Assembly: GCF_964213995.1 (NCBI RefSeq)
Contig: NC_135821.1
Location: 77,562,001-77,626,000, forward strand
Length of the DNA: 64,000 nt
Source of the DNA: Mustelus asterias
Taxonomy: Eukaryota
Direction of reading: 5' to 3'
The notes under the pieces are model-generated. The model had not been told where the DNA came from. It did not search any database and saw only the letters and a list, made by a program, of their open reading frames with translations. Below are positions 23,946 to 56,761 of the stretch, in pieces. Both the position numbers and the translations under genes were made by a program. How positions within the stretch are numbered: the first letter of the stretch is position 1; every line of letters starts with the position of its first letter.

Positions 23946-24064
23946 ACCACTGACCCAGCTCTTAGAGGATCAGCATGGATATTACGTGGGAATGTCCAGG
24001 AAAATAGCGATGTTAACACAAATCAACAGCAGTACAATGTGAATGCAGGGTTTTTCACTAAATC

Positions 24065-27772: not shown

Positions 27773-27926
27773 ATGATGTGGAGATGCCGGCGTTGGACTA
27801 GAGTAAACACAGTAAGAAGTTTAACAACACCAGGTTACCTGAAGAAGGGCCTTGGGGCTCCGAAAGCTTGTGTGGCTTTTGCTACCAAATAAACCTGTTG
27901 GACTTTACTGGTGTTGTTAAACTTCT
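27773..27926. mobile_element. Young PLE-terminus fold-back insertion with a 13-bp TSD
   Basis: TSD taca[a/g]gggaggtc at 27760-27772 and 27927-27939; inversion junction caggt-t-acctg at about 27831-27841. Confidence 0.9.
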
Positions 27927-28091
27927 TACAGGGGAGGTCCCAGAGGATTGGAGGTTGTTCCTTTGTTTAAGAAGGGTAGCAAGGATAATCCAGATAAATA
28001 CAGGCTGGTGAGCCTTATGTCAATGGTAGGGAAATTATTGGAGCGGATTCTTCGAGACAGGATTTACTCCCACGTGGAAATAACCGGAAGT

Positions 28092-28447
28092 CATAGAATC
28101 ATAGAAATCATAGAAACCCTACAGTGCAGAAAGAGGCCATTTTGGCCCATCGAGTCTGCACCGACCACAATCCCACCCAGGCCCTACCCCCATATCCCTA
28201 CATATTTACCCGCTAATCCCTCTAACCTACGCATTTCAGGACCCTAAGGGGCAATTTTTAGCATGGCCAATCAACCGAACCCGCACATCTTTGGACTGTG
28301 GGAGCACCAGAGCACCTGGAGAAAACCCACGCAGACACGAGGAGAATGTGCAAACTCCACACAGACAGTGACCCAAGCCGGGAATCGAACCCAGGTCCCT
28401 GGAGCTGTGAAGCAGCAGTGCTAACCACTGTGCTACCGTGCCGCCCT
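28092..28447 (-). mobile_element. HE1-type V-SINE, full length, young
   Basis: Near-identical reverse complement of 63252-63596; (TTCTATGA)n-type tail; about 40 bp of host CR1 is missing at the site compared with 61890-61970. Confidence 0.92.
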
Positions 28448-29676
28448 CACTAACTTGATTGAGTTTTTCGAGGAAGTGACAAAGATGATTGATGAGGGTA
28501 GGGCAGTGGATGTTGTCTACATGGACTTCAGTAAGATCTTTGACAAGGCAGACTGGTGCAGAAGGTGAAGTCGCATGGGATCAGAGGTGAGCTGGCAAGG
28601 TGGATACAGAACAGGCTCGGTCATAGAAGACAGAGCGTAGCAGTGGAAGGGTGCATTTCTGAATGGAGGGCTGTGACAAGTGGCGTTCCTCAAGGATCAG
28701 TGCTGGGACCTTTGCTAAAAATGATTTGGAGGAAAATGTAACTGGCTTGATTAGTAAGTTTGTGGATGACACAAACATTGGTGGATTTGTGGATAGCGAT
28801 GAGGGCCATCAGAGGATACAGCAGGATATAGATCAGTTGGAGACTTGGACAGAGGGATGGCAGATGGAGTTTAATCTGGACAAATGTGAGATAATGCATT
28901 TTGGAAGGTCTAATACAGATAGGAAATATACAGTAAATGGCAGAACCCTTACGAGTTTTGATAGGCAGAGGGATCAGGGTGTACAGGTACACAAGTCACT
29001 GAAAGTGGCAACACAAATGGAGAAGTTAGTCAAGGTGGCATACGGCATGCTTGCCTTCATCGGCCAAGGCATTGAGTTTAAAAATTGGCAAGTCATGTTG
29101 CAGCTTTATAGAACCTTAGTTAGGCCGCACTTGGAATATAGTGTTTAATTCTGGTTGCCACACTACCAGATGGATGTGGAGGCTTTGGAGAAGGTACAGA
29201 AAAGATTTACCAGGATGTTGCCTGGTATGGAGGGCATTAGCTATGAGGAGAGTTTGGAGAAACTTGGTTTGTTCTCACTGGAACGACGGAGGTCGAGGGG
29301 CAACCTGACAGAAGTCTACCAGATTATGAGGGGCATGGACGAATGGACAGTCAGAAGCTTTTTCCCAGGGTGGAAGAGTCAATTACTAGGTGGCACAGGT
29401 TTAAGGTGCGAGGGGCAAGGTTTAAAGGAGATGTACGAGGCAAGTTTTTTGTTTTACACAGAGGGTGGCGGGTGCCTGGAACTCACAGCTGGGGGAGGTA
29501 GTGGAAGCAGATACAGTAGTGACTTTTAAGGGGCGTCTTGACAAATACATGAATAGGATGGGAATAGAGGGATGTGGTTCCCGGAACGGTAGGGGGTTTT
29601 AGTTCAGTCGGGCTGCATGATCGGTGCAGACTTGGAGGGCTGAAGGGCCTGTTCCTGTGCTGTAATTTTCTTTGTG

Positions 29677-29752
29677 ACTCATGCCAGGAATCGAACCCGG
29701 ATCCCTGGTGCTGTGAAACAACAGTGTTAACCACTGTGCCACCATGCCGCCC
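29677..29752 (-). mobile_element. V-SINE tRNA-like head fragment
   Basis: Reverse strand gggcggcatggtggcacagtggttaacactgttg...gggttcgattcc. Confidence 0.75.
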
Positions 29753-30364
29753 AAACTTGCAATGTCATGACACTATTTACTATGGGAAAAGTTAATAGGA
29801 AAAAAAGTAATTGCAAAATATTGTTCTGAAATAAGAATAAAATATCAGTTCAGATTTTTATTTTGTGCTGGGAAATCCAGACACCAATTGATCATTCCTA
29901 GGCCCATTAATTTCTTACCTCCCCATCAATGTTTCCTTCCACCCAGGTTTCATCTTGGGATCTTTCAATGTGTTTAAGACAGTAGTATTTAAATACAAGT
30001 TGTTTTTGTTGCATTAGCTAATCACCAGTTCTTGATTTATCCCATCATCTGTTGCTCTCAACTTGGTGTAATGTAGTGTGGACCCCTAACCCTTCAATTA
30101 CATTACTCAACAAAATATACCCAAGGCAAGGGAAATATGGCATCTGCTGCAGGATGCAAGGAAACCATAAGATGATTAATTTGAATAGAGTGAAGTTCCC
30201 ATTCATAAACCAAATCAAGTTTTAACACTTTCTCTTTGGGTGAGCAAAATGCTGAACCATGTAACAGAAGGCATGGACATTTTTCAACACTTTAATTGAC
30301 AACTGAATACCACAAGTGGGACCATTTTCACTGAGAAATCAGCCCGCAGTGGAGTCAGCTGGCA

Positions 30365-30700
30365 TAGGAAGATTTCACAGGAGAGTGACCAGATAAAACT
30401 TAGCACTGAGCCACAAAAAGCAACATTAGGACCAAAACAGGTATGTTTTAAGGAGCACCATAAAGGAGGGAAGCGAGGTAGAGAGGTGGAGAGGCTTAGA
30501 GACGAAATTCCAGACCTTGGAGTCTCAGTGGCTGAAAGTGCAAGGGTCCCTGACGGAAACATTGCAGTGTAGGGGAGGCCAGAATTGCAGGGATCGATGC
30601 TCTTGTTGGGTTATAGGACTGAAGGAGGTTACACAGATAGGGAAGCCCCCTCCCATGGAAGTATATTAAAATGAGGATGAGAATTTTGAAATCGAGCCAC
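30365..30700 (-). mobile_element. L2 LINE 3' fragment
   Basis: Reverse-complement match to 17150-17400 (aaattccagacc, gctgaaag, ccagaattg). Confidence 0.65.
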
Positions 30701-33700
30701 AGTTTATTCCAATGGATCCATTTTTAAAGGTTGTACAATTCTTATTTACACTTTGTCAATTTATATGGCTTAACTGCGGTTGTCTATGCACATGTCAATT
30801 TCCAAACTCGCCGACATTCTGCAAGAAGTTCAAATAGATATGCATACACATTAAACACATGGCTGGTAAACTTGCATCATAGTCTATTGGCAAGTTTGAT
30901 CATTTTCCCCTTCACACAATTGCTCCCCTGGATGCCACCCAGGAGAGATTGGATTTATCAAGTCTGGAAATGACAAATACATGGATGAGGGTTTTGACAG
31001 TTAATAGGCCAAAGCAGGAAGGTGATTGTTACTACTACTGCTAAAATAGGAACACAGCTCTGAAATATGACATGGGAGGCTGTGGCATAGTGGTAATTTA
31101 ATTGGACTAGTAGTCCAGAGGCTGTGGCTAACATCGTATGAGTTCTAATCTGTGAAAGTTAAATCTAATCAATGAATCTGAAATTAAAAGCTGGTCCAAT
31201 GGTGACCATGAAACCATCACCGATTGTTGCAAAACCCTTCTGGTTCACTGATGCACTTTAGGGAAGGAAATCTGCCATTCTTACCTGGTCTGGCCGACAT
31301 ACGACTCCAGACCTACAACAATGTGGTTGAATCTTAAGTGGCCCCTGAAATGGCCAATCAAGCCTTCAGTTGTATCAAACTGCTACAAAGTCTGCAAAAA
31401 GGAATGAAATCGGACAGACCACGCAGCATCGACCTAGGTACTGGAAATGACAACAGCGCACACAATCCTGTCAACCCTGCAAAACCTGGAGCCTTGTGCC
31501 AAAACTGGGAGAGTTATAGCACAGACAAGACAAGAAACAGTATGACATAATAATACTCATGGAATCATACCTTATGCCCCAGACATCACCACCAACATCC
31601 CATTGACAGGACAGACCAACCAGAGGTGGCAGCAAAGCATTATACAGTGGGGGTGGGAGTTGCCATAAGTGCCCTCAACATTGACCCAGGACCCCATGAA
31701 ATCTTATGGTATCAAGTCAAACACGGGCAAGAAAACCTCCTGCTGGTTATCACTTACTGTCTCTGCACCCTCCACTCAGCTGATGAATCAGTACTCCTCC
31801 ATGTTGAACACTACTTGAAAGAAACACTGAAGGTGGCGAGAACATAGAATGTACATTGGGTGGGGAACTTCAATGTCCATCACCAAGGGAGGCTCAATAG
31901 TACCACTACTGACTGAGCTGGCTCAGTGTTAAAGAATATAGATGGGTCTTCAGCAGGTGGCGAGGGAGCAACAAGAGAGGAAATCCCACTCAACCTCGGC
32001 TTCATCAATCTACCTGTTGCAGATGCATCTGTCCATGACAATATTGGTAGGACTGACCACCACACAAACTTTGTGGAGATGAAGTCCTGGCTTCACAATG
32101 AGGACACCCTTCATCACTGAATCGTATAGTGTGGCACTACCACCTTGCTAAATGGATAGATTTCAAATAGATCTTTCAACTCAAGACTGGGCAACCATGA
32201 GGCGCTATGAGCCATAGCAGAATTGAATACAACCACAACCTGCAACCCCATGGCCTGGCGTATCCCCCACTCTATCATTATCAAGCTGGAGGAACAACGC
32301 TGATTCAGTGAAGAATGCAGAATGGCATGCCAGGCGCAAAACCAGGCAGATCTAAAAATGGAGTGTTAACCCGGTGAAGTTACAACACTTGCGTGCGAAA
32401 CTCTGGAAGCAGCATTTGATAGACACAGCTAAGCAATTCCATAACCAATGGGCCAGATCTAAGCTTTGCAGTACGAGCATATCCAGTCATAAAATAATGG
32501 TGAACAATGAAACACTTAACTGAAGGAGGAGGTGCTGCAAATATCCCCACCTTTGATGTGCAAAAGACAAAGATGAAAGATTTGCAGCCATCTTCAGCTC
32601 GAAGTGCTACATGGATGATCCATCCTGGTCTCTTTCTGAGATCCCCCACGTCACAGATGACAGTCTTCAGCCAATTTGATTCACTCCACTTGATGTCAAA
32701 GAACAGCTGAAGGCTATGGGCCCCAACTACATTCTGACAATAGAACTAAAGTCCTATGCTCCAGAACGAGCCATTCCCTTAGCTATCTACCTGGCAATGT
32801 AGAAAATTACCCAGGTATGCCCTGTCCACAAAAAGCAAGACAAATCCAACTGACCAATTACCACCCCATCAGTCTACTCTCGATCTTTGGCAAAGTGATG
32901 GAAGGTGTCAACTACAATATTATCAAGTGGCACTTACTCAGCAATAACCTGCTCACTGAAGCAGAGTTCGAGTTCAGCCAGGGCCACTCAGCCCCTGATC
33001 TCAGCTTAGGTCCAAACTTGGACAAAAGAGCTGAATGCAAGAGGTAAGGTGAGAATGACTGCTCTTAATATCAAGGCAGCATTTGATCAAGTGTAGCATC
33101 AAGGTGCTCTAGCAAAACTGAAGTCAATGGGAACTGGGGTCAGGACGGTGCAGAAACTTTCCAATGGTTATAAAGTCATACTTTGTACAAAAGAAGATGG
33201 CTGTGGTTTTTAGAGGTCAATTATCTGAGTCCCAAAACAAGAGTTCCTTCAGGTAGTGTCCTCGGCATAACCATCTTCAAGTATTTTGTCAATGACATTC
33301 CCTCCATCAAAAAGGTCAGAAGTGAGGATTTTTGCAGGTAATTGCAAAATATTCAGTCAGCATCATTCACTACTCCTCAGATGTTGAAGCAGTCTGTGTC
33401 CACGTGCAGCAAGATTTGGACAACATTCGGGCTCGGGCTGACAAGTGGCAAGTAGCATTTGCACCAGATAAATGTCAGGCAATGACACAATGAACAAGAA
33501 AGAATCTAACCCTCACCCCTTGACATCCGATGGCATTATCATTGCCGAATCCCCATCAACATCCTGGGGGTTACCATATGTTAACATATATACATGGATA
33601 GAAAGCTTAAGGACATCATCACTGCAGAGCAGCTGGTGTGCAGCAGCAGTTCCTTCTAACTGACATAGCACTCAGCCTGGCAGCGAGTTGACATACTGGT

Positions 33701-33814
33701 CAGACATAATGAACAGTCTCAGATCATGCAACATGGCATGGGTCAATCCTTGACATCCTGGTCAGATTGCATCTGAGAGTGTAGAAACCACAATGTGCTG
33801 ACCTCAGAAGATAA

Positions 33815-33970
33815 ATGCAAAAATCTTACAGTCGCGCTGATGGCACACCCCTGCCATGGGTTTCCCAGTGGTGAACGGTGTGTTCAATAGGAAATCCCGT
33901 TGACAATAAAGTCCCGTTACCAACAACACTCGGCCTCCTGCCGCAGAGAGGGAGAAAAATCCTGCCCATA
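33815..33970. mobile_element. MITE-like element
   Basis: Ends gagaaaaatcctgccca, the reverse complement of the gggcaggatt terminus at 5887. Confidence 0.45.
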
Positions 33971-35051
33971 GTGCAGAGATAATGCTCAAATAAAAAGTTG
34001 GTAAGCAGACGGATCCCTGACGGTGAGTTTGCAGCACATAATGAGTCAGTTCAGTGAATGGGACAGCGCATCGAGAGGTCCAGCACCGGACCGGGTTAGC
34101 TCAATAAGGCAAGGCAAGTGGCCAGGGTGGGGCCGGATCAAGAGTGAGTGAATGTCAGTCAAACAAAAGAAAAACAGAACAACCATCATAAGAACTGGGC
34201 CACAGAAGGTTGTGATCATTGGTGGCTTCAGGACTTGCTGAACAACAAACTGAATGAAACAAGGAGGAAGATCAAAGGGATATTTTCAAAATTCAAAAAT
34301 TCCCCAAGTTAAATTGGGATGCAACTGACCTACTATCAGAGTTCAAAATGTTTAAAGAGCATGCAGAGCTTTTGTTTCTTGATCCACGTGTTTGAACCAG
34401 AACAGCAAGCCATAGAAATTTGACTAGTGTTTGGGAATGAGGGTCTGCAAAAGCTGAACATGTCAAGATTGACATAAAAAGAGCAGCTACCAGATCCCCA
34501 AAAGATGGACTACATTGGAAGACCGGTTCAGAATCAGGTTAAACTTTCGCTTTCATGTCATTTTGTCAACAGCTGACAGAATCAACAGGCCAATTTGTTA
34601 GCAGATGTAAAGAAAGGAGTACATCATGTATTTTTTCAGATGAAGAGCTGGCAAACAAAAAGTTGGTGCTTCCCAAGATCTTCTAGACAAGCCCAAAATG
34701 CATAGCATTAAACAACTACTCAAAGATCAACATATGTATGAAGCAATATTAGCAGGTCGATGAATCTTACAAGTCCTGAGTACAACCCCAATTGTTGACG
34801 CTTTTACTAGAACATTAGAACCTAGCAAGACATGTAGAAAGTGACCGTCTGAGTGGACTAAGGAAATGCCCAGCTTTCCATCAATTCTGCAAAGCATGTG
34901 GGAGAAAGGGCCATTGACAGCAGCACTGCACTAGCTCAAAGGCTGATGCAGCTACAAAGAGCTATGCATTGATCCAAATGGACCAGACACAACAGCTACG
35001 CTCAAGCAATAAGAATGACTGTCTGGTATCCCATCTGAAACATATCCATCA

Positions 35052-35350: not shown

Positions 35351-37131
35351 AGGTCACCGAAAAACCAGAAAATGATGATGACAAAGAGACGAACAGCAAA
35401 GACATATTACACACCCAATCTCGTGGAAAACAAGGTGTCATCGCACCATCCAAAGTGTTTGCTAAGATTCAAATTATCTGCCCTAAGTTAGTTGTTGGTT
35501 ACTCATTATTAGCCAAGATTGACACGGGGCAAGTGACAACATACTAGCCCTGCAAATTCTAAAAGACATGAATCCACAGATGTGGAAAGCCATGGCAAAA
35601 CCTACTACTGCACAATTTTCAGCTTACAATGATTCACTAATTCCATATATTCCTGGAGTGCAAATATAAACAATCCTCCTGGGTATCACAGATGTTCCAT
35701 GTCATCGAGACTAAAGGCCCAGCAATTGTAGGTCTACCAGTATGCCGTGAACTCATACTAGCGATAATCCAAGGAATTCGTAAGACCTCATATAGCATAT
35801 CCCACCATATTATGATGTAAAATACACCAACTGTTCATAAGGGATTGTGCAAACACATTGTGGGTTCACTTATTAATTCTAGGCCCATGTGAACACATAT
35901 GGAGAGAAAGCTTGAGGACTTCAGAACTGCAGGGTTGAGTCTGCTGTGTTCTGTTACAGCCAGAAGTGAAACGAAGGCTGGATCATATGACACACTTCCC
36001 TTAAAGTGATGTCATGCTGCTATCCCTTAAAGACATATTACAACCACTACCTGTAATCTCCTCCAATTCTCACACCATCCTGACATGGAACTATATCGCC
36101 ATTGTTTCACTGTTGGTGGGTCAAAATCCTGGAACCTACTTGCTAACGACACTGTGGGTGTTCCTAAAATACATGGACGGCAGTGGTTCAAGAAGGCAGC
36201 ATATCAACTCCTGAAGGGTAATTAGGGATGGATGGGTAATGAATGCCGGCCTAGCCAGTTATGCCCACATCCCTTGAATTTAAAAAATGCCACTTTGATG
36301 CAGTAGCAAATGACTTAGTTTTTTGAAAGCCGAATCACTGAACCTCTTACCACTTTGGACATTACAATATTCTTTCATGGGACTCATCTCCTGAAAGAAT
36401 TCTAAAAATTTGGTTCAATTCATATCTGATTAATTGATGGTTCTGTGATTACTCTTCAAGTGGCTCAATAGTATACATCATCTATGAGTCATCTGTATTT
36501 TCTGAGTGGAATGTCTGTGGAATCAGTTTTAATAATATTATGTAACATTTTTGTCAAACGTTATTTGAGAAACAAAGTAACAGTGAATAACAGAATATTG
36601 TAATTTCACAGAGGTCTTGTGTCTGAATCAAGTACAGATTGATTAACATCCCTTTGTCTGCTAGCTAAAGGCTCCTAAGTACTCTGAGGTTGTGTAGTCC
36701 AAACCCAATCCTTAATAAATAGAAACTTACAGCAGGAAAATTGCTAATAACTCGCTACAATTTGGCAATTTTACTTTTGAAAGAAAAGACAAGTATTTGA
36801 TATGGGAAGTGAAAGGTCACACTAATACAATAGGGGGGGGCTCCTAGGTGGGGAATTCAGAAAGAGAAAGCATGAAATAAGCAAAGCTATTTAAGCCTAT
36901 TATGCCGTGGTTTCTTCAACAGATGATATGCAATCTTTGTTACATTGGATGAGGTCCAAACCATCTAAATTGCTTGAGAGATTTAAAATACATTGTTGGA
37001 TAGTGGAGTGGGAACTTCATCTGCTTACAGATCTACAATGCACAATGTAGGTAGGTTTAATGCTATAAACAAGAATGTATCTGACCCACAGCACAAGTAG
37101 ATGCCTGAAATATAACAAATGACATAAAATT

Positions 37132-37711
37132 TGCTGCAGGAAAGAATGCCCTGAGGCGTGGTACGTCGACGAGACCATGCAGACGCTTGGACAGCGGATG
37201 AACGGACACCACGCAACAATCACCACGCAACAATCACCAGGCAGGAGTGTTCTCTTCCTATCGGGGAACACTTCAGCAGTCAAGGGCATTCAGCCTCTGA
37301 TCTTCGGGTAAGCGTTCTCCAAGGCAGCCTTCAAGACGCATGATAACTCAGAATCGCCGAGCAGAAACTGATAGCCAGGTTCCGCACGCGTGAGGAGGGC
37401 CGCAACCAGGATCTTGGGTTGCAAAATCCTACTAACTGTCCTGGCTTGAGATAATTCACACCTCTTTAACCTGTGATCATCCCTCTCTCCACTCGCATTG
37501 TCTGTACTTGTAAAGACTCATATTATAACCATTATCTTGCAATTGCATCTCTGTCTATATATGCCATGTTTGTGAACATAACTCTCCACTCACCTGAGGT
37601 AGGAGCAGCGCTCCGAAAGTTCATGATTCCAAATAAACCTATTGGACTTTAACCTGGTGTTGTGAGACTATTTACTGTGCCCACCCCAGTCCAACGTCAG
37701 CATCTCCACAT
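37132..37711 (+). mobile_element. Penelope-like element (older subfamily), 5'-truncated: decayed GIY-YIG C-terminal half plus pLTR/tail
   Basis: CPEAWYVDET, CSLPIGEHFS; TSD cataaaatt at 37123-37131 and 37712-37720; hammerhead-like ctgaggta...gaaag at 37594-37625. Confidence 0.9.
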
Positions 37712-40700
37712 CATAAAATTCAGGGGTCACCAAAATCTCAAGGTTCACACAATGTGACTAATCATTGAAACTACACTCTCTACTTCTAACTTTATTTGAA
37801 CATTGGAATCATGTCCAATTAGCCCCGTACTATTACCATGTGTATAACTGCGAGATTAACAGTCTGTCCATGCCTCTTTAAAGCAAACTGCCACATGACC
37901 ACAATGCCATGAGATACAAACTTTGAACAATGCAACTAGCATCCTGAATAGAACCTCCTTCCCCAAAAATAACTGGTGGGATCATTTAATTGTGAGAAAT
38001 CCCATTTAGAATGGTAAAAAGACAATGGTAACATGATTGAAATAATAAATGAAATGTTAACAACCATTCTCTAACTACTGCTACACAGTTCAGTTCTGGA
38101 ATATTTGGATACAGACATCTGAATTTTTACATGTGCTTAAAATTATTTTCTTTCCTTTTATTTTTTGATAGAAAGTACATATGTCGATCAAGGATGTAAA
38201 TTGTGGACAATCTCATGGATTCTCAGCAATATTATTAAGTCACTGTTGGACAAAGAGTCAAGGTACCTGTTGAGTATACCCTACTAGAAGCTAATGGTAT
38301 CCTAAGATATACCTTTTTCTTAAAAAAGAAAACCCATCTGGAACAATTTATAACTTGAATTTTGTTTTTAATGGATAATGTGAACTTCTTATGAGATACT
38401 CCATCCTTCCCTATTCCTTTATCTATACAAACATAACACAACTGTTTCAACGACAGATGGTAGTAGTTGTTTTTGGCCAATGGCCTTCCAAATGATTCAA
38501 CACTAAGCTTTGGAGTCACAGTATGCTGAAACTAGTCCTTGCATTTACAATTGGCTGGGGAGGTGCAAATGTGATTCTGCTTAAACCAAGTAAAGCCATT
38601 TTAGCTTAACACAAGAAACATTAGAGGTCCTGGAAGTGAAGAGGCCATTCAGCCCATCAAACCCCTGCATCAAGCACCTTACATCTCCTATTATAACACT
38701 CAGCTACGTTTTGAATGTTGCATACATTCTTTCCAATATACTGAATTTAAATTTATTTTTGACTAATTTATGGGTATTGCAAGAGAGTGAAACCAGGTCA
38801 GAACCACTTCTGAACATGTTGCAAAATACACCAACCACTTTGCAACATTTGCCCAATATGTCATTATGACTCAGGCAACACTTAATATATTTATGACCCC
38901 ATTTGTGGAGGTATGCTACATGAAATACCCAATTTAAACTACTTTTTTCTCATTGTAACCTTCTTTCTCGATAGCTGCCAGGATGCAATAATAAACGAGA
39001 CATCACAGAACATCACAAAATATTGTAATGGAGGCACACCTGAGGCTATCATGAACTTGCAACCAATGCAAGACTGAAATGTGACACTGAAACTCAGCAC
39101 CTTTGTGCCCCTTTTGTGGAACTGCCCAACTGCAGGCCATTTTGAAAAGGATAACAGGCCACCATAAAAGAGCAAGCCTCTTCCAAAACTCTAAAATACA
39201 GACCTGAACACAAAGCCAGACTGCTACTTCAAAAGCTTTTAACAACCCTCTGGATTACTTTAGAAGCATTGGTAAAATAAATCCTATGAATTCTGATGTC
39301 TTGTAGAAATGAAACTGCAAGGTTATCTATGTGGAATTTTGTTTTAACCATTGGAATGTTTTGAAGATTATACTGTTAATTAAATATGTCCTTATAAGAG
39401 CCAACAAAACCCAGGAAGAGTACACAGGGAAATCACCACATCTTGAAGTTGAGCCACTTATCCTTGCTTGTCTGTCTGTTTGTTTTATGAAATGCAGCAT
39501 GTACCAACATACATATTGAATATTATTCATGCCTCTCATTGTCAATGCTCACTGGCAAGCTGAGGCTTAGGTTCACAGGACTCTGAAAATTTAGCTCAAA
39601 GGCTGAATATTTCAACAAGGTTAATTTCACTTAAGTTCAGACACTAGTTATCAAGATTGTTTATTCTACCCCAACCACCGCCCCCAACCTCCAGAAAAAT
39701 AATGGTGCTCTCTAGAATTTGCTTGTGCAGTTTCAAAACTTACGACTGCCAGGTAAAGACTTCAACAATTATGCTGCTCACAATAGATTGCTTAATGTCA
39801 GGAAAAACTTCAAGTTGAATACCTGAGAAACAATTTAATAAATATATAGCAAATCAGTATGGAAAACTTGAATTAGTCATTTTTAGCAGAAAAGCTTATG
39901 ATTTATTGTCAAGCTCTTTCCTCCATATGGAAAGCGTGACACAACCAGCTGCAGTAGCATGGACTGAAGCAATATTGTACAAGACCGAGTAAACTTGCCT
40001 GGACTGAACAGCACATTTTATAAGACGTCACTATAAATTAAAGAAGAACATGGTATGTAGAACCACTTTGTTAACACCCAAGCTTTAAATATAAACAGAG
40101 CACGCATTTCAGAAACCCTCCCCACCTCAAGGACCAGGTTTTTTGGCTTATGGTCTGCAGGAAATTCCTAATGATCTTCATCATGTGTTCAGAAAAAAAA
40201 TCTTTCCTGCCAAGACTACCCTAAAGGACATATGTTGAACATTCTGCACACATTGTATGCTTGCAATCCTTCTGCCTTTCTCAAAAATCCTGTGTCCTCT
40301 GTCCACATCACCCATGTTAGAGAAACTGAGTCCACCGCTGAAGGGCTAAACATGATCGCAAATGGCCATCTCTCAGCAGTTATTATTTTTGTCCAATAAG
40401 CCTTTACATTTTTTATTACACCAGGTTGTTGTTTAACGACATGAATTTCTTCCATATTTGCTGGTTTTCCCTGGCTAAAAGCCAGCCTGCTAGGCTGTCA
40501 GCTTCCTGCTGTGTCTGAATCACGTGGCAGTGAGTGCAACCTAGTAACACCCAAAGTACTTGCTGCTCGATGCTGTTCAGTCATTAGAGACTAACAATTC
40601 TTTTGAATGCTCAGCAATACACAGCACTTGGTGTTCTTCCACTGTGGACAGATGTGAAATGTTCCAACACAACGGTTCCTTAAGAATTTAGATTTGTATG

Positions 40701-41982: not shown

Positions 41983-42508
41983 CACAGTAAGAAGTTTAAC
42001 AACACCAGGTTAAAGTCCAACAGGTTTATTTGGTAGCAAAAGCCACACAAGCTTTCGGAGCTCTAAGCCCCTTCTTCAGGTGAGTGGGAATTCTGTTCAC
42101 AAACAGAGCTTATAAAGACACAGACTCAATTTACATGAATAATGGTTGGAATGCGAATACTTACAACTAATCAAGTCTTTAAGAAACAAAACAATGTGAG
42201 TGGAGAGAGCATCAAGACAGGCTAAAAAGATGTGTATTGTCTCCAGGCAAGACAGCCAGTGAAACTCTGCAGGTCCACGCAACTGTGGGAGTTACAAGTA
42301 GTGTGACATGAACCCAATATCCCGGTTGAGGCCGTCCTCGTGTGTGCGGAACTTGGCTATCAGTTTCTGCTCAGCGACTCTGCGCTGTCGTGTGTCGCGA
42401 AGGCCGCCTTGGAGAACGCTTACCCGAATATCAGAGGCCGAATGCTCGTGACCGCTGAAGTGCTCCCCAACAGGAAGAGAACAGTCTTGCCTGGTGATTG
42501 TCGAGCGG
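41983..42508 (-). mobile_element. Young Penelope-like element, 5'-truncated
   Basis: RSTITRQDCSLPVGEHF...VAEQKLIAKFRTHEDGLN; nearly identical to the arms at 46466-47734; probable TSD tttaaa at 41977-41982 and 42509-42514. Confidence 0.92.
42043..42088 (-). ncRNA. Minimal type I hammerhead ribozyme motif in the PLE pLTR
   Basis: Minus strand CAC-CUGAAGA-A-GGGGC-uuaga-GCUCC-GAAA-G-CUU/GUG. Confidence 0.75.
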
Positions 42509-45402: not shown

Positions 45403-46525
45403 AAAAGGCTACCAAACAAAGAACAAAGAACAATACAGCACAGGAACAGGCCCTTCGGCCCTCCAAGCCTGCGCCGCTCATGTGCCCACTAGACCATTCT
45501 TTTGTATCCCTCTATTCCCAGTCTGTTCATGTGGCTATCTAGATAAGTCTTAAACGATCCCAGCATGTCCGCCGCAATCACCTTGCTTGGCAGTGCATTC
45601 CAGGCCCCCACCACCCTCTGTGTAAAATACATCCCCCTGACATCTGTGTTGCCCCCCTCACCTTGAACCCGTGACCCCTTGTGTTCGTCACCTCCGACGT
45701 GGGAAAAAGCTTCCCACTGTTCACCCTATCTATGCTCTTCATTATTTTATACACCTCTATTAGGTCGCCCCTCATCCTCCGTCTTTCCAGTGAGAACAAC
45801 CCCAGTTTACCCAATCTCTCCTCATAGCGAAGACCCTCCATACCAGGCAACACCCTGGTGAACCTCCTCTGTACTATCTCCAAAGCCTCCACGTCCTTCT
45901 GGTAGTGTGGCAACCAGAACTGGATGCAGTATTCCAAATGTGGCCTAACCATCGTACTATACAGCTGCAACATCATATGCCAACTTTTATATTCCATGCC
46001 CCGTCCAATAAAGGCAAGCATGCCATATGCCTTCTTGACCACCCTCTCCACCTGTGCTGCCACTTTTAAGGATCTGTGGACTTGTACCCCCAGGTCCCTC
46101 TGTGTGTCTATACTCCTGATGGTTCTGCCATTTATTGCATAGCTCCCCCCTTACATTAGATCTACCGAAATGCATCACTTCGCATTTATCTGGATTAAAT
46201 TCCTTCTGCCATTTCTCCGCCCAATGTTCCAGCCTATGTATATCCTGCTGTATTCTCTGACAACGTTCATCACTATCCGCAACTCCAGCAATCTTCGTGT
46301 CGTCCGCAAACTTACTGATCACACCAGTTACATCTTCCTCCAAATCATTTATAAATATCACAAACAGCAGAGGTCCCAGTACAGAGCCCTGCGGAACACC
46401 ACTAGTCACAGACCTCCAACTGGAAAAAGACCCCTCCACTGCTACCCTCTGTCTTCTATGGCTAACACAGTAAGAAGCTTAACAACACCAGGTTAAAGTC
46501 CAACAGGTTTATTTGGTAGCAAAAG

Positions 46526-46571
46526 CCACACAAGCTTTCGGAGCTCTAAGCCCCTTCTTCAGGTGAGTGGG
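46526..46571 (-). ncRNA. Minimal hammerhead ribozyme motif (left arm)
   Basis: Same motif as 42043-42088. Confidence 0.75.
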
Positions 46572-46774
46572 AATTCTGTTCACAAACAGAGCTTATAAAG
46601 ACACAGACTCAATTTACATGAATAATGGTTGGAATGCGAATACTTACAACTAATCAAGTCTTTAAGAAACAAAACAATGGGAGTGGAGAGAGCATCAAGA
46701 CAGGCTAAAAAGATGTGTATTGTCTCCAGGCAAGACAGCCAGTGAAACTCTGCAGGTCCACGCAACTGTGGGAG

Positions 46775-47092
46775 TTACAAGTAGTGTGACATGAACCCAA
46801 TATCCCGGTTGAGGCCGTCCTCATGTGTGCGGAACTTGGCTATCAGTTTCTGCTCAGCGACTCTGCGCTGTCGTGTGTCGCGAAGGCCGCCTTGGAGAAC
46901 GCTTACCCGAATATCAGAGGCCGAATGCCCGTGACCGCTGAAGTGCTCCCCAACAGGAAGAGAACAGTCTTGCCTGGTGATTGTCGAGCGGTGTTCATTC
47001 ATCCGTTGTCGCAGCGTCTGCATAGTTTCCCCAATGTACCATGCCTCGGGACATCCTTTCTTGCAGCGTATCAGGTAGACAACGTTGGCCGA
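46775..47092 (-). pseudogene. PLE GIY-YIG endonuclease domain (C-terminus of the PLE ORF; RT absent)
   Basis: SANVVY.IRC...C....YIGET...LRQRMNEH...HF...E...GLN: GIY-YIG motif with CCHH residues; the S.NVVY form resembles Neptune-clade PLEs. Confidence 0.9.
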
Positions 47093-47591
47093 TACGCTGC
47101 AAGAAAGGATGTCCCGAGGCATGGTACATTGGGGAAACTATGCAGACGCTGCGACAACGGATGAATGAACACCGCTCGACAATCACCAGGCAAGACTGTT
47201 CTCTTCCTGTTGGGGAGCACTTCAGCGGTCACGGGCATTCGGCCTCTGATATTCGGGTAAGCGTTCTCCAAGGCGGCCTTCGCGACACACGACAGCGCAG
47301 AGTCGCTGAGCAGAAACTGATAGCCAAGTTCCGCACACACGAGGACGGCCTCAACCGGGATATTGGGTTCATGTCACACTACTTGTAACTCCCACAGTTG
47401 CGTGGACCTGCAGAGTTTCACTGGCTGTCTTGTCTGGAGACAATACACATCTTTTTAGCCTGTCTTGATGCTCTCTCCACTCCCATTGTTTTGTTTCTTA
47501 AAGACTTGATTAGTTGTAAGTATTCGCATTCCAACCATTATTCATGTAAATTGAGTCTGTGTCTTTATAAGCTCTGTTTGTGAACAGAATT

Positions 47592-47638
47592 CCCACTCAC
47601 CTGAAGAAGGGGCTTAGAGCTTCGAAAGCTTGTGTGGC
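47592..47638 (+). ncRNA. Minimal hammerhead ribozyme motif (right arm)
   Basis: CUGAAGA 47601-47607, stem II ggggc/gcuuc, GAAA 47624-47627, palindromic AAGCUU, predicted cut after 47631, GUG pairing with CAC 47598-47600. Confidence 0.75.
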
Positions 47639-48867
47639 TTTTGCTACCAAATAAACCTGTTGGACTTTAACCTGGTGTTGTTAAACTTCTTACTGTGTTT
47701 ACCCCAGTCCAACGCCGGCATCTCCACATCATGACTTCTATGGCTAAGCCAGTTCTCCACCCATCTAGCTAGCTCACCTTTTATCCCGTGAGATTTAACC
47801 TTTTGCACCAGCCTGCCCTTCGGCCCTCCAAGCCTGCGTCTCTTGTCAAACGCTTTACTAAAAACCATATAGACGACATCTATGGCCCTTCCCTCGTCAA
47901 TCGTTTTTGTCACCTCCTCAAAAAACTCAACCAAATTCGTGAGGCATGACTTCCCTCATACAAAATCATGCTGTCTATCGCTAATGAGATTATTCAGTTC
48001 TAAATGCGCATATATCCTATCTCTAAGAATCTTCAACAACTTCCCTACCACGGACGTCAAGCTCACCGACCTATAATTACCCGGGTTATCCTTGCTACCC
48101 TTCTTAAATAACGGGACCACTGGTCCTAAATTTACAAGTTCCTCTTTTCATCAAGTGATCAGCATATGCAATGATTTCCAAGTAGGGTAGTGAAGGTAAA
48201 ATTCCTAGAATTGTTTAAGAAGCAGTTGGATAAAGCAAAGAGATCTTTCTGGTTGGACAAAGGTAGAACGTTGATACAGTTACTGTTTACAAAATGTCAA
48301 CAAATCAGGAAAACTGGTCATTAAACAAAATGAATCAATTTTTCTCATGAGACATTAATCTCAAGGTTTTCTGGATTTTTGTATTCACTACATCTTAGAA
48401 GATGCCAGTATAAGTCAATAGCCTGTGATTTGATGACAAAGTTAAAAATCACCTGTCATTAACATTGAAAAATAATTTCTTCCTCATATTGTCTGATTTT
48501 AATCCAGTTGACAAAGTGGCCAACATTTTGTAAACTGGGTTAGTGAGCCAGGTCAGTACGTTATGGTCATGGTCATATTAACATATTTTAAAAATTTGTT
48601 ACAGATTTCTAAGTTCATGCAAGTGAAAAGCTACTCATGGGGATTGAGAACTAGCTTCAGTACCAAGCGCCCTCCAGTAAGAACTTTACTACAGCAGTAT
48701 AGAGTAAAGTGCACTATATTCTGCAGCAATTAACACCGTGCTTTAATTGTGCCTTTAAAGAGCAACTAAACAACAACTTGTATTTATATAGTGCCTTTAA
48801 TGTAATAAAATGTTCCAAGGTGCTTCACAGGCACATTATAAAACAAAATATGACAACAAGGCACTGA

Positions 48868-49866: not shown

Positions 49867-49867
49867 T

Positions 49868-50090
49868 CATAGGGCAATGTTAGACAGAAGACTATGAACT
49901 TGAACAAATAGGTGGGACTTAAAGAGTGTCTGAAAGAGGGAAAGAGAGGTTGAGAGGTTTAGGGAAGGAATTCCAGAGCTTAGCCCACAGGCAGCTGAAG
50001 ACAGGGCCACCAATTGTGGAGCAATTAAAATCAGGGATGGGCAGAATGCAGGAATTAGAAGAGGGCAAATACCTTGGAAAGTTGTGGGGG
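49868..50090 (-). mobile_element. L2 LINE 3' fragment
   Basis: GGPVFSCLWAKLWNSFPKPL; homologous to 17150-17350. Confidence 0.75.
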
Positions 50091-50854
50091 AGAACAAAGA
50101 ACAAAGAACAAAGAAAATGACAGCACAGGAACAGGCCCTTCGGCCCTCCAAGCCTGCACAGAACATGCTGCCCGACTTAACTAAAACTCCCTACCCTTCC
50201 GGGGACCATATCCCTCTATTCTCATCCTATTCATGTACTTGTCAAGATGCCCCTTAAAAGTCACTACCGTATCTGCTTCCACTACCTCCTCCGGTAACGA
50301 GTTCCAGGCACCCACCACTCTGTGTAAAAAATCTGCCTCGTACATTTCCTTTAAACCTTGCCCCTCACACCTTAAACCTATGCCCCCGAGTAATTGACTC
50401 TTCCACCCTGGGAAAAAGCTTCTGACTATCCACTCTGTCCATGTCTCTCATAATCTTGTAGACTTCTATCAGGTCGCCCCTCAACCTCCGTCGCTCCAGT
50501 GAGAACAAACCACGTTTCTCCAACCTCTCCTCATAGCTAATGCCCTCCATACCAGGTTACATCCTGGTAAATCTTTTCTGTACCCTCTCCAAAGCCTCGA
50601 CATCCTACTGGTAGTGTGGCGACCAGAATAAAACACTATATTCCAAGTGTAGCCGAACTAAGGTTCTTATAAAGCTGCAACATGACTTGCCAATTTTTAA
50701 ACTCAATGCCTCGGCCGATGAAGGCAAGCATGCCATTGTTCAACCGGAGCAAGGCAGAGAGGAGCGATTTGTAGCTGGAGTAAAAAGAGTAAGGGATTGA
50801 CTTTTTTTCCCTTACTTTTTCGTGGGGTTTCTTTTTTTTTTCCTAGTTTAAGTG

Positions 50855-51055
50855 AAAAGCGGAAGTAGGCCGGCCGCGGGATGACCTGGGAAGGAATTTT
50901 TTATTTTTTTTTTATAAGCGCGCGGGAGGTTTAAAAAGCAGGCCGCACTATCCAGCGGGCAACGTCGTTAGCGGGCAGCGAAGTGAGCAGGTAGCAGAGT
51001 GAGGGCTGAAGGGCTTTGGTTCAACGGGCTTAGGCGGAAACGGGCAAGGCAGGGT
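50855..51055 (+). promoter_or_regulatory. CpG-rich CR1 5' UTR, likely internal promoter
   Basis: Dense CpG in a CpG-poor window; ETS-like GCGGAAGT at 50859-50866. Confidence 0.45.
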
Positions 51056-51107
51056 AGGTTTAGTTCTTAGTTTTTAAAAACTTAAAAACAAAACCAATCA
51101 AATAAGG

Positions 51108-52046
51108 ATGGAGGGTCAGGTGATGTGTTGTTCCTGCATGATGTGGGAGCTGGTGGACCCCATTGTGGTTCCCAGTGAACATGTCTGCAGTAAGTGTTGG
51201 TTGCTTGAGGAACTCCGGCTCAGGGTTGATGAGCTGGATTCTGAGCTTCGGACACTGCGACACATCAGGGAGGGGGAGAGATACCTGGATGCTGTGTTTC
51301 AGGAGGCAGTCACACCCCTTAGACTAACTAACTTGAATTCAGTCAGTGGTCAGGGGCAAGAGGGTTTGGCTGCGAGTGAGGCAGGTAGTGGGATCCAGGA
51401 GGTAGAGTTCCAGGAGCCTCAGTCCCTGAACCTGTCCAACAGGTTCGAGATTCTTGTTCTGTGTGTGGACGGGAACGGGGAGTGCAGGGAGGATGAGCAA
51501 ACTGACCACAGCACCATGGTACAGGGAGCCGTTCAAGTGGGGGGAGAAAAAAGAAATGTAGTCGTAATTGGGGAGAGTATAGTTAGGGGCATTGACACTG
51601 TTCTCTGTGACCAGGATCGAGAATCCCGAAGATTGTGTTGCTTGCCTGGTGCTCGGGTCCAGGATATCTCATGTGGGCTGCAGAGGAACTTGGAGTGGGA
51701 GGGTAAAAATCCAGTTGTCGTGGTCCACGTAGGTACCAACGACATAGGTAGAACAGGAACAGAGGTTCTGCTACGGGAATATGAAAAGCTAGGAGCTAAA
51801 TTAAAAAGCAGAACCAAAAAGGTAATAATCTCTGGATTACTACCTGAGCCACGAGTGAATTGGTGCAGGGTCAATAAGATTAAGGAGGAAAATGCGTGGC
51901 TCAAAGATTGGTGTGGGAGGAATGGGTTTGAATTCATGGGACATTGGCACCAGTATTGGGGAAGAGGGGACCTGTTCCGATGGGATGGTATTCATCTGAA
52001 TCGTGCTGGGACCAGAGTCCTGGCGAATCATATAAGTCGGCTGTAG
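51108..52046 (+). CDS. CR1 ORF1p: Zn finger, leucine zipper and SGNH/GDSL esterase domain; open frame of 312 aa
   Basis: CxxC...CxxC (CCSC...CSKC); LEELRLRVDELDSELRTL; VIGESIVR (block I), HVGTNDI (block III), DGIH (block V). Confidence 0.9.
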   Translation: MEGQVMCCSCMMWELVDPIVVPSEHVCSKCWLLEELRLRVDELDSELRTLRHIREGERYLDAVFQEAVTPLRLTNLNSVSGQGQEGLAASEAGSGIQEVEFQEPQSLNLSNRFEILVLCVDGNGECREDEQTDHSTMVQGAVQVGGEKRNVVVIGESIVRGIDTVLCDQDRESRRLCCLPGARVQDISCGLQRNLEWEGKNPVVVVHVGTNDIGRTGTEVLLREYEKLGAKLKSRTKKVIISGLLPEPRVNWCRVNKIKEENAWLKDWCGRNGFEFMGHWHQYWGRGDLFRWDGIHLNRAGTRVLANHISRL

Positions 52047-52275
52047 ATAGGGCTTTAAACTAAATAGTGTGTGTTTGGGGGGGGGGGGGTTCAGTTGTAT
52101 GGAGAATTAGAAAATCAAAGGTAAAGGAGAGGGTAGGAATGCAGGTTAATGATGAGGACTTTCAACAAGTTAAAGGAGCCGAGGGCTCAGGAGAGGTTAG
52201 TAAAGTTTCCAGACCACGTAATAGAACAGAGTATAGAAGGTGGCAGGAATCTAGACCTCAGGCAGAGTAAAAAAG

Positions 52276-55234
52276 GTGACAAGCATGAGAAGGGAGGTGG
52301 TCAACACAGTGCAAGGAGATGGTCTGGGGAAGAATAACCAGTCTGTGACAGGAAGGGACGGAGCATGCAAACAAAGGAATGCACGTAGCATTCGAAACAA
52401 AGTGAATGAATTGACGGCACAAATCAGTGCAAATGGGTATGATCTAGTGGCCATTACAGAAACGTGGTTGCAGGGTGACCAGGACTGGGAACTAAATATC
52501 CAGGGGTATCAGACAATTCGGAAGGATAGACAGAAAGGAAAAGGAAGTGGGGTAGCTCTGTTAATTAAGGATATCAGGGCGGTAGTGAGAGATGATATAG
52601 GCTCTAAGGAGCAAAATGTGGAATCAATGTGGGTGGAGATAAGAAATAGTAACGGGAAAAAGTCACTGGCGAGCGTAGTCTATAGGCCCCCAAATAATAA
52701 CTTCAAGGTGGGGCGGGCTATAAACAAACAAATAACAGATGCATGTAAAAATGAAACAGCAATAATCATGGGGGATTTTAACCTCTATATTGATTGGTCA
52801 ACTCAAGTCGGACGCGGTGGACTTGAGGAAGTTCTTAGAATGCTGTTGCGATAGTTTCCTCGAACAGCATGTTCCAGAACCTACGAGGGAGCAAGCTATC
52901 TTGGATCTGGTCCTGTGTAATGAGACAGGTAAAATTAATAATCTCCTTGAGAGGGATCCTCTTGGAATGAGTGATCACAATATGGTTCAATTTCTAATAC
53001 AGATGGAGGGTGAGAAAGTAGGGTCCCAAACCAGTGTCCTCTGCTTGAACAAGGGGGATTACAATAGGATGAGGGCGGAGTTGGCTAATGTAGACTGGGA
53101 ACACAGACTAATTGGTGGAACAGTTGAGGAACAGTGGAGGATTTTTAAGGAGATTTTTCTCAGTACTCAGCAAAAATATATTCCAGTGAAAAAGGAGGAA
53201 TGTAAGAAAAGGGATAACCAGCCATGGATAACTAAGGAAATAAAGGAGAGTATCAAATTAAAGACCAATGCATACAGAGAGGCCAAAATTAGTGGGGAAC
53301 TAGAAGATTGGGAAGGCTTTAAAAAACAATAAAGAACTACTAAGAAAGCAATAAAGGAAAGATAGATTATGAAAGTAAACTAGCACAAAATATAAAAACT
53401 GATAGTAAAAGTTTTTACAAATATATAAAACGGAAAAGAGTGGCTAAAGTAAATGTTGGTCCCTTAGATGATGAGAAGGGGGATTTAATAATAGGAAACG
53501 AGGAAATGGCCGAGGCCTTAAACAAGCTTTTTGTGTCAGTCTTCACAGTGGAGGACACAAATAGCATACCAATAATTGACGGTCATGGGACTGTCGGGGG
53601 TGAGGACCTTAAAACGATCACTATTACTAAAGAGGTAGTGCTGGGTAGGCTAATGGGACTAAAGGTAGACAAGTCCCCTGGTCCAGATGGAATGCATCCC
53701 AGGGTACTAAAAGAAACGGCAGAAGCAATAACAAATGCATTAGTTGTAATTTATCAAAATTCACTGGACTCTGGGGAGGTCACAGTAAGAAGTTTAACAA
53801 CACCAGGTTAAAGTCCAACAGGTTTATTTGGTAGCAAAAGCCACACTGGGGAGGTGCCAGCTGATTGGAAAACAGCTAATGTAACACCACTGTTTAAAAA
53901 AGGAGGTAGACAAAAGGCAGGTAACTACAGGCCGGTTAGCTTAACATCCGTAGTTGGAAAAATGCTGGAATCTATCATTAAGGAAGAAATAGCAGGACAC
54001 CTGGAAAAGAATGGTTCAATCAAGCAGACGCAGCATGGATTCATGAAGGGATAGTCGTGTTTGACTAATTTACTGGAATTTTTTGAGGATATAACGAATG
54101 CGGTTGACAGAGGGGAACCGATGGATGTGGTGTATTTAGATTTCCAGAAGTCATTCGATAAGGTGCCTCACAAAAGGTTGCTGCATAAGACAAAGGTACA
54201 CCGAGTTGGGGGTAAAGTGTTAGCGTGGATTGATGATTGGCTATCTAACAGAAAGCAGAGAGTTGGAATAAATGGGTGCTTTTCCGGTTGGCAATCAGTG
54301 ACTAGTGGCATGCCGCAGGAATCAGTGCTGGGGCCTCAACTATTTACCATATACATAGACGATCTGGAGGAGGGAGCCGAGTGTAGGGTAAAAAAGTTTA
54401 CGGATGGCACAAAGATGAGTGGGAAAGCAAATTGCGTGGAGGACACAGAGTCTGCAGAGAGATTTGGATAGGCTAAGTGAGTGGGAAAGGATCTGGCAGA
54501 TGGAGTGTAACGTTGGTAAGTGTGAGGTTATCCACTTTGGAAGGAATAATAATAAAATGGACTATTATTTAAATGGTGAAAAATTACAACATGCTACTGT
54601 GCAGAGGGACCTGGGGATCCTTGTGCATGAATCGCAAAAACTCAGTTTGCAGGTGCAGCAGGTAATCAAGAAGGCAAATGGACTGTTGGCCTTTATCGAG
54701 AGAGGGATGGAGTATAAAAGCAGGGAGGTTATGCTGCAACTGTACAGGGTACTGGTGAGGCCGCACCTGGAATACTGTGTACAATTTTGGTCCCCTTATT
54801 TAAGAAAGGATATATTAGCTTTGGAGGGGGTACAGAGAAGGTTCACCAGGTTGATTCCGGAGATGAGGGGATTTGCTTATGAGGAGAGATTGAGTAGACT
54901 GGGCCTGTACTCATTGGAGTTTAGAAGGTTGAGGGGAGATCTTATAGAGACATATAAGATAATGAAGGGGCTCGACAGGGTAGAAGCAGCAAGGTTATTT
55001 CCACTTACAATGGAAACAAGAACTAGGGGGCATAGCCTCAAAATACGGGGGAGTCAATTGAGAACAGAGTTGAGGAGGAACTTCTTCTCCCAGAGGGTAG
55101 TGAATCTTTGGAATTCTCTGCCCAATGAAGCAGTAGAGGCTACCTCGTTAAATGTGTTTAAGTCACAGATAGATAGATTTTTAACCATTAAGGGAATTAA
55201 GGGTTATGGGGAGTGGGCGGGTAAGTGGAACTGA
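52276..55234 (+). pseudogene. CR1 ORF2 (APE endonuclease plus RT), disrupted by frameshifts, stops and a 65-bp PLE insert
   Basis: NARS, AITETWL, YRPP, GDFN, LDLVL, SDH; KSPGPDG, NYRPVSL, DFQKSFD, FTDG (mutated FADD). Confidence 0.92.
53781..53845 (-). mobile_element. 65-bp young PLE-tail insertion with a 10-bp TSD
   Basis: TSD ctggggaggt at 53771-53780 and 53846-53855. Confidence 0.92.
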
Positions 55235-55775
55235 ACCCACACTCAGATCAGCCACGGTCTATTTGAATGGCGGAGCAGGCTTGAGGGGCTAGATGGCCTA
55301 CTCCTGCTCCTATTTCTTATGTCCTTATGCCGTATGCCTTCTTGACTACCTTCTCCACCTGCATTTCCACTTTCAGTGACCTGTGTACCTGTACACCCAG
55401 ATCCCTCTGCCTATCAATACTCTTAAGGGTTCTGCCATTTACTGTATATTTCCTATCTGCATTAGACCTTCCAAAATGCATTACCTCACATTTGTCCGGA
55501 TTAAAACTCCATCTGCCATCTCTCCGCCCAAGTCTCCAACTGATCTATATCCTGCTGTATCCTCTGATGGTCCTCATCGCTATCCGCAAATCCACCAACC
55601 TTTGTGTCGTCCGCAAACTTGCTAATCAATCCAGTTACATTTTCCTCCAAATCATTTATATATATATTACAAACAGCAAAGGTCCCAGCACTGATCCCTG
55701 AGGAACACCACTTGTCACAGCCCTCCATTCAGAAACACACCCTTCCACTGCTACCTTCTGTCTTCTTTGACCAAG

Positions 55776-55944
55776 ATGTGGAGATGCTGGCATTGGCCTG
55801 GGGTAAACACAGTAAGAAGTTTAACAACACCAGGTTAAAGTCCAACAGATTTATTTGGTAGCAAAAGCCACCTTTTGCTACCAAAGTGGCTTTTGCTACC
55901 AAATAAACCTGTTGGACTTTAACCTGGTGTTGTTAAACTTCTTA
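55776..55944. mobile_element. Young PLE-terminus fold-back insertion with a 13-14-bp TSD
   Basis: TSD cttctttgaccaa(g) at 55762-55775 and 55945-55958; arms invert at gccac/gtggc with a duplicated cttttgctaccaaa filler. Confidence 0.92.
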
Positions 55945-56694
55945 CTTCTTTGACCAAGCCAGTTTTCTATCCACCTTGCTAGCTCACCTCTGATCCCATG
56001 CAACTTCATCTTCTGCACCAGTCTGCCACGATGCCACTTCCTATCAGAAGTGGCATCAAGCAAGGATGTGTGTGTTTGCACCCACTCTTTTCTCCAATTT
56101 CCAAGTGGTCATCCCCAACATGTTAATCCAAAAAGGATCAGGTCTATGTTTTAAGGAATTCTTTCCTTTTATTTCCTACCCCATAGAGTTTGCACCCTGA
56201 ATTCGCACCTCCCTCTATCACAGCTGTCAGTCATAAATCATTCTGCATATTATAAACATTGTAAAAAGGTAAATAATGCCTATTTTGGTAATAATTCCAC
56301 ATATTTAAACATATGGTCTAAAATATGCTTTAAAAATGGCTTTAACTTTCACTTGTGCAACATCGTGATTGCAAAGATTTTTGTAGGAAACATAAGATTT
56401 TGTTGCTATATACATCATGGCCTGTCACTCAATTGGGGTGGCATGATATGGATGCAAGTTGAACGCAGTCACTAGTATATCTCTACTGACTGTACGTCCA
56501 CATCATGCTCCAGTGATTAACAGTTCTCAGCACTAATATCGCCACAAATCTTGGATAACTACAGAAACAAGGAGAATGTTACACCTCTTTGTTTACTGTT
56601 AAATGTTATTAAATTATTTAATTTTTATTTGTTCGAACTGCGAGAAATGGTATTTCCTAACTCCGTCAAAGCTGCCTCTGGGTCAGCAATGTGA

Positions 56695-56761
56695 TGATGT
56701 GGAGATGCCGGCGTTGGACTGGGGTAAACACAGTAAGAAGTTTAACAACACCAGGTTATGA
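56695..56761 (-). mobile_element. 67-bp young PLE-tail insertion in unique DNA, 11-bp TSD
   Basis: TSD cagcaatgtga at 56684-56694 and 56762-56772. Confidence 0.92.

Follow-up and report, generated by a model that had tools for sequence, protein, structure and literature searches.

Eight inserts in a stretch of shark DNA are, on balance, probably products of target-primed reverse transcription by a Penelope-like element (PLE) that bears an endonuclease, with both nicks of a symmetric target site able to prime. Seen in the sequence are two zones of outer ends, a symmetric target with the primed ends 1–2 nt inside it, short matches between primer and template, and a contrast in how long the target-site duplication (TSD) is between inserts with one arm and inserts with two; the nick positions, a dimer, the use of a single RNA and the route by which the arms are joined are what we infer. 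The pattern is real and is a further example of PLE behavior that is mostly known, so the headline result changes little. Less familiar is the placing of every young copy in a short mirror-symmetric target, the two end points themselves having been described already. Published work is cited for the portions of each paper that were covered.

The inserts and the element from which they derive

The window, by which we mean the whole stretch of 64,000 nt that was analyzed, comes from Mustelus asterias (GCF_964213995.1, NC_135821.1, 77,562,001–77,626,000) and is animal DNA rich in CR1. All coordinates are those of the window; positions marked ref are numbered along the sense arm (47091–47734) of the insert at 46466. 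TSDs flank all eight inserts, four of which have two arms and four a single arm.

Three of the two-armed inserts are young, and their arms are called short or long after the zone in which the outer end falls. The insert at 27773–27926, in CR1, has the long arm on the left (ref 47668–47733) and the short arm on the right (ref 47599–47693), a mirror junction at 27831–27841 and a TSD of 12–13 nt with one mismatch. The insert at 46466–47734, also in CR1, has the short arm on the left and the long arm on the right; the short arm extends 20 nt further 5', the arms overlap by 2 nt (47091–92) and differ at four positions, and the TSD is 13 nt. At 55776–55944 both arms end at ref 47634 with a 14-nt snap-back copy (55872–55885) between them; the TSD is 14 nt, and the CR1 site occupied is homologous to that of the 46466 insert. 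The fourth two-armed insert (23279–23447) is older, with a long left end, a short right end, a turn within hammerhead stem II and a TSD of 14–15 nt (23264/5–23278 and 23448/9–23462).

Three of the one-armed inserts are likewise young and lie on the minus strand. That at 41983–42508 has a short end with 4 nt of microhomology, a 5' end at ref 47171 and a TSD of 6 nt. The next (53781–53845, 65–66 nt in length) has a short end, a TSD of 10 nt and a 5' end that coincides with the predicted hammerhead cut, and occupies a CR1 site homologous to that of the 27773 insert. The third (56695–56761) has a long end, a 5' end at ref 47668, a TSD of 11 nt and three extra bases (56759–61) that match neither the arm nor the TSD. 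The remaining one-armed insert (37132–37711, plus strand) is older, about 70% identical to the reference arm, and has a long end, a 5' end at ref 47096 and a TSD of 9 nt.

Judged by homology, the inserts are 5'-truncated copies of a shark PLE of the GIY-YIG type, with relatives of the Neptune/Nematis type. The 46466 insert carries a C-terminal GIY-YIG endonuclease fragment of the putative PLE ORF on the plus strand (47092–47388) and its mirror copy on the minus strand (46775–47092); the Pfam match for GIY-YIG, on 46778–47137, scored 24.0 bits (cut-off 22.6), with both cysteines in frame. For the fragment at 47092–47385, 53 relatives were found among 59 candidates, the top one, in a shark, being 94% identical. 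No full-length PLE copy is present within the 64-kb window and no copy there extends into the reverse transcriptase (RT); the relative P0006, 84% identical over 98 aa, carries RVT_1. A CX4CxxC linker was found in all eight of the relatives checked (of the 53 found), the window copies being truncated short of it. In the portion of PMC8557442 covered, a CX2-5CxxC linker between RT and endonuclease marks Neptune/Nematis and is absent from Poseidon. A protein scan gave two distant loci among 231 candidate stretches, and a search of metagenome, genome and viral contigs for the 35-nt pLTR pattern gave no loci.

Several annotated isoforms of shark host genes contain the endonuclease fragment, which suggests frequent exonization or mis-annotation of such inserts. 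Other features of the window include a 14-nt tandem duplication within the old one-armed copy (37207–37243), a 43-nt tandem repeat in seven copies (23647–23948) lying 200 nt beyond the right end of the 23279 insert, and a near-complete CR1 (51078–55300), whose ORF1 is of the GDSL-esterase type and whose ORF2 is broken, and which contains the 53781 insert and adjoins an opposite-strand CR1 piece at about 55300. A decayed frame at 20924–21589, where an integrase zinc-binding domain matches weakly and short of the Pfam cut-off, is probably a remnant of an LTR retrotransposon.

Two zones of outer ends

The outer ends of the inserts fall into two zones, with six of the 12 ends in each. The preliminary description listed eleven of these ends, all at correct coordinates; the twelfth, the right end of the 23279 insert, is short, and makes this insert a fourth fold-back. 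Short ends lie within 47687–47701 on the plus strand, the ref intervals allowed by microhomology being 47687–89 (right end of 23279), 47690–93, 47692–94, 47697, 47697–99 and 47697–701. Long ends lie within 47729–47733, at 47729–30, 47729–32, 47731–32, 47732–33 and, in two cases, 47733. No end falls in the 27 nt between the zones (ref 47702–47728), for which P = 0.0015 when 12 ends are spread uniformly between the extremes and P = 0.034 when just eight points are drawn. What had been proposed as two start points about 35 nt apart proved to be two clusters, 36 nt apart at their commonest positions, but each cluster is a zone (about 15 nt wide for the short ends and 5 nt for the long) rather than a point.

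Upstream of both zones is a minimal hammerhead motif with a palindromic helix III (47598–47634, plus strand), whose predicted cut, read from the consensus, lies between 47631 and 47632. The motif scan gave four matches, every one inside a PLE insert, and the motif fits the minimal hammerhead as defined in PMC4209133; an Rfam search gave three chance matches and none to a hammerhead. A 36-nt tail (47698–47733, plus strand), which contains the long zone, is present at six of the 12 outer ends. Within it, the 8 nt at 47706–47713 are complementary to a conserved stretch further upstream, ref 47659–47666. RNA folds of the end region (n = 5) gave z from -1.27 to 1.29, no better than shuffles, and we therefore claim no structural account of the two zones. 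Two cDNAs with long starts end at ref 47668, immediately 3' of the 47659–47666 stretch.

The inserts share 1–4 nt with the target at nine of the 12 ends (P = 5e-4), 19 nt in total (P about 1e-5), which bears out the earlier statement that most junctions show such microhomology. After the long end, three window ends read ATGAC, and the loose-end consensus of two public sequencing runs (X15 and X17, below) starts GCTAC; if the young subfamily continues ATGAC, the true microhomology exceeds our count. The long zone finishes on ATG (47731–47733), which, as a guess, may serve the following tandem copy as its ORF start codon.

Contigs of four of 21 public runs (X1, X3, X15 and X17) were aligned to 47480–47775, low-share rows and habitat labels being left out. 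Among the loose-end rows listed (six per run, with 603 others beyond them), the sole downstream loose ends in X15 and X17 are at 47697 (104 and 28 contigs, respectively) and 47733 (252 and 88 contigs); X3 has 47697 (20 contigs) and no long-end row, and X1 has 47732 (2 contigs). Agreement among the loose ends is low (0.33–0.42), as is to be expected where the flanks are many and different. Both peaks are biased: another subfamily differs from the reference at 47698–47700, so that slightly later ends pile up at 47697, and the reference stops being element at 47733, so that longer contigs pile up there. Summed depth in X15 is level over 47690–47719 and drops after 47729; in X17, X3 and X1 it declines more steadily. 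A genome-wide histogram of ends had been proposed as a check; both zones do recur in these contigs, but they give no clean histogram and do not prove that the gap is empty. In X15, X17 and X3, five of the 15 joint rows connect short ends at 47689–47694 to the CR1 site beside the 46466 copy. Although one of these rows may derive from the 55944 locus, and five bases at this point are common to element and site, the rows suggest a recurrent CR1 target. Loose ends on the upstream side, at 47634–47647, were considered as 5' junctions and rejected, being other subfamilies with a different hammerhead stem II (agreement 0.55–0.83). The loose-end consensus hints at AG about 15–16 nt beyond the long end and is too blurred for counting.

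Target site and duplication length

When every mirror word and spacing was searched, TG-N16-CA emerged around all six young inserts and around neither of the two old ones, with CTG-N16-CAG around four. For four of four independent young sites P = 0.0014, and for at least four of six sites P = 0.016, neither motif nor spacing being fixed in these calculations. The primed ends of the young inserts sit 1–2 nt inside TG-N16-CA. Over all inserts a CA lies 1–2 nt beyond the primed end at ten of 12 ends, both ends of the 23279 insert failing, and at seven of nine independent half-sites (post hoc P = 0.002). A symmetric PLE target was not found in the part of the literature covered, and may be in print. 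At the old one-armed copy (37123–37131 / 37712–37730) there is a CA 1 nt beyond the primed end, and another CA yields TG-N17-CA, which differs by one base from the motif of the young inserts.

The position of the ends bears on the proposal that the tail and the inverted arm arise by self-priming on an antisense template or by endonuclease resolution of a DNA intermediate. This was put forward in PMC3846280 and PMC8557442, before the in vitro work, and accounts for the palindromic junctions. We consider it highly unlikely for the shark inserts, given that RT starts determined in vitro coincide with the tail boundaries (PMC11167929) and that microhomology at nine of 12 ends, together with the fixed distance to CA, indicates priming at target nicks.

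Two CR1 positions were each hit twice (46436–46470 / 55745–55780 and 27758–27772 / 53767–53780), the 46466 and 55776 inserts sharing one position in two CR1 copies that are 80% alike. CTG-N16-CAG occurs just 0–2 times per CR1 span in the six spans, so repeat insertions follow from the target preference. None of the eight targets is a microsatellite; for Neptune/Nematis a bias toward microsatellites such as (TA)n is described, as a tendency, in PMC8557442. Homologues of the hit CR1 sites that are empty exist within the window, and this is one reason why we find it scarcely credible that the fold-backs are post-insertional or assembly artefacts and their clustering due to chance. Long palindromes are prone to mis-assembly and the sample is small, but TSD and turn are individual to each insert, the arms at 46466 differ from one another (in a manner that cannot tell one template from two), and both zones recur in the public runs.

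TSD lengths are 14, 12, 13 and 14 nt in the two-armed inserts and 9, 6, 10 and 11 nt in the one-armed inserts (P = 0.014), the ranges being 12–15 and 6–11 nt; counting a shared base lengthens two of the two-armed values by one. The three young one-armed copies fall short on their unprimed side (gaps of 8, 4 and 3). L1 has the same contrast, attributed to protection of the primed end (PMC11702581).

The mechanism that we favor would proceed as follows. A protein, probably a dimer, would nick each strand 1–2 nt 5' of the CA(G) half-site, giving a 3' stagger of 13–14 nt. Priming from a nick would then begin at an internal position of the RNA, in the short zone or in the long one, with 1–4 nt of pairing setting the exact position. 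Where one nick primes, the other end would be trimmed and joined to the cDNA, to give one arm and a TSD of 6–11 nt; where both nicks prime, both ends would be protected, to give two arms and a TSD of 12–15 nt. The two cDNAs would terminate at one or other of a few preferred 5' positions, after which end-joining would unite their 3' ends, with tiny overlaps or snap-back filler.

Joining of the arms and comparison with known systems

All four two-armed inserts, including the older one at 23279, pair a short end with a long end. The probability of this by chance is 0.03–0.06 under independent choice and 0.10 by permutation, so that the earlier observation that fold-backs pair one end of each type stands at four of four but is under-powered. 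Such pairing would follow from both nicks engaging one RNA, for which we judge the chances about evenly balanced. A further suggestion, that the 56695 insert ends in a vestigial second arm, agrees with the three extra bases outside both arm and TSD, but such an arm would make the insert long plus long, against the pairing. If the subfamily continues ATGAC, this stub agrees with the long end at five bases, of which three are free (by our reckoning about 1 in 64), and if it is read in this way the pairing tally becomes four of five.

The alternative is that two separate RNAs are used, each nick picking its zone independently, with no pairing rule and the four of four due to luck. The chance probability of up to 0.10 and the possible long-plus-long stub would fit this, as would the use of both starts on both strands by PAc, the Poseidon element of Anolis carolinensis (PMC11167929), and the designation of the tail as "optional" (PMC3846280). 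The two ends are nevertheless discordant in four of four inserts, the arm lengths are coupled, and the tail is often at one end only (PMC8557442); we regard independent choice as unlikely.

The junctions between arms are of mixed type. A microhomology join between the two cDNAs had been proposed, and is clean at 46466, where there is a genuine 2-nt overlap (ga) at 47091–92. Elsewhere the 27773 insert turns at caggt-t-acctg (27831), a 5-bp mirror with an overlap of 1 nt, the 55776 insert has no overlap and a templated 14-nt snap-back copy, and the 23279 insert turns in stem II. Such a mixture may reflect some self-priming, which the hairpin-like form of all four turns favors. The first cDNA might fold back and copy most of the second arm from itself, the second nick priming a short tail piece or accepting the fold-back strand. 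The mirror-like turns at four of four junctions and the snap-back copy in 55776 would fit such a hybrid, an 18-nt hairpin loop would account equally well for the 2-nt overlap at 47091, and self-priming from such palindromes has been proposed (PMC3846280). Pure fold-back requires nested arms, however, and in 46466 and 27773 the arms are not nested in either direction; one cDNA therefore cannot supply both ends and a second priming is still required. The arm 5' ends in the four inserts are 0, about 10, 20 and 69 nt apart, the last in 27773; this asymmetry could also have arisen if a palindrome that was once nested suffered a deletion between two 5-nt repeats. Matched arm lengths are also explicable without fold-back, because the same 5' stops recur in separate, unrelated inserts (47071/47091/47096, 47632/47634, and 47668 twice). 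The hybrid is to our mind rather improbable, and priming by both nicks is the reading that we retain.

The 5' ends at 47071, 47091 and 47096, from two subfamilies about 70% alike, lie within 25 nt inside the endonuclease coding region, and are possibly the RNA 5' end or a strong RT stop. A rule placing 5' ends at the hammerhead cut was rejected, as just three of 12 inner ends are within 2 nt of it and one coincides with the motif's upstream edge.

Within a TSD, both arms are directed outward from 3'-OH ends, and this counts for double priming; counting against it are the sample of only eight inserts, the 56695 stub, if real, the hairpin turns and the two old inserts that are without TG-N16-CA. 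The proposal that both nicks prime, at two RT starts, is strengthened by the TG-N16-CA target and by the full-length TSDs of the two-armed inserts, and has already been published for PAc in vitro (PMC11167929). More tentatively, and in our view with the chances against it, a dimer may read TG-N16-CA (best CTG-N16-CAG) with a fixed stagger of 13–14 nt, the two starts of one RNA being handed one to each nick. If so, the tail would be a footprint of dimer geometry on a single RNA, every fold-back would represent concerted double priming, and both CR1 positions would be genome-wide hot spots.

Comparison with other elements bears out the statement that PLE copies often carry inverted 5'-truncated segments. 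An inverted 5'-truncated copy with an optional tail of 30–40 nt, often at one end, is described in PMC3846280, PMC8557442 and PMC8969392, and the shark inserts resemble these complex insertions in their inverted arms, one-end tail, TSD round the whole unit, palindromic junctions and minimal hammerhead. In the covered portions of the same papers, TSD length is ascribed to a variable nick distance, with a microsatellite or moderate target bias, whereas for the shark PLE a fixed stagger is suggested, at a symmetric site and followed by trimming.

An analogy had also been drawn to twin priming by L1, in which the second primer lies far inside the RNA and adjacent arms result, with short deletions or duplications (10.1101/2024.08.27.596794). 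The analogy is loose. The shark arms copy the same RNA stretch, overlapping over most of the shorter arm in four of four inserts, and this is not L1-type twin priming; they start within 46 nt of each other, in contrast to L1 arms, which start far apart on adjacent stretches. Shared with L1 are priming by both nicks, an inverted arm, a discrete long TSD when both ends are primed, and small overlaps or filler at the junction. MITEs and fold-back DNA transposons have identical terminal inverted repeats and a TSD of fixed length. The shark inserts are like them in being short and non-coding, with inverted ends and a TSD, but this assignment was rejected: the ends differ by about 36 nt, TSDs range from 6 to 15 nt, lengths and turns vary from copy to copy, and the inserts consist of retroelement 3'-end sequence.

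The details added here bear on how inverted PLE copies and a one-sided tail arise after initiation, steps that are unvalidated in the covered part of PMC11167929; PMC8557442 asks for them to be studied in vitro. Of the results given here, the symmetric target and the TSD contrast merit testing across the genome, and a young, high-copy family with a defined symmetric target offers countable predictions (TSD by arm number, pairing, half-site position) and a ready substrate in vitro.

The closest known system is PAc, in which two internal RT starts just 3' of the hammerhead bound a tail of 30–40 nt; both strands are nicked and extended from the same starts, a dimer is predicted, and genomic ends match the starts (PMC11167929). 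The shark PLE likewise has two start sites about 30–40 nt apart and 3' of a hammerhead, recognized here from genomic ends alone. PAc differs in that AT-rich DNA is cut at ATT and the start is described as not homologous to the target; the shark PLE does not match this target type, using CA(G) half-sites 16 nt apart, with TG-N16-CA at six of eight inserts and 1–4 nt of microhomology at nine of 12 ends. Relatives of the shark PLE carry the Neptune/Nematis linker, whereas Poseidon is without it.
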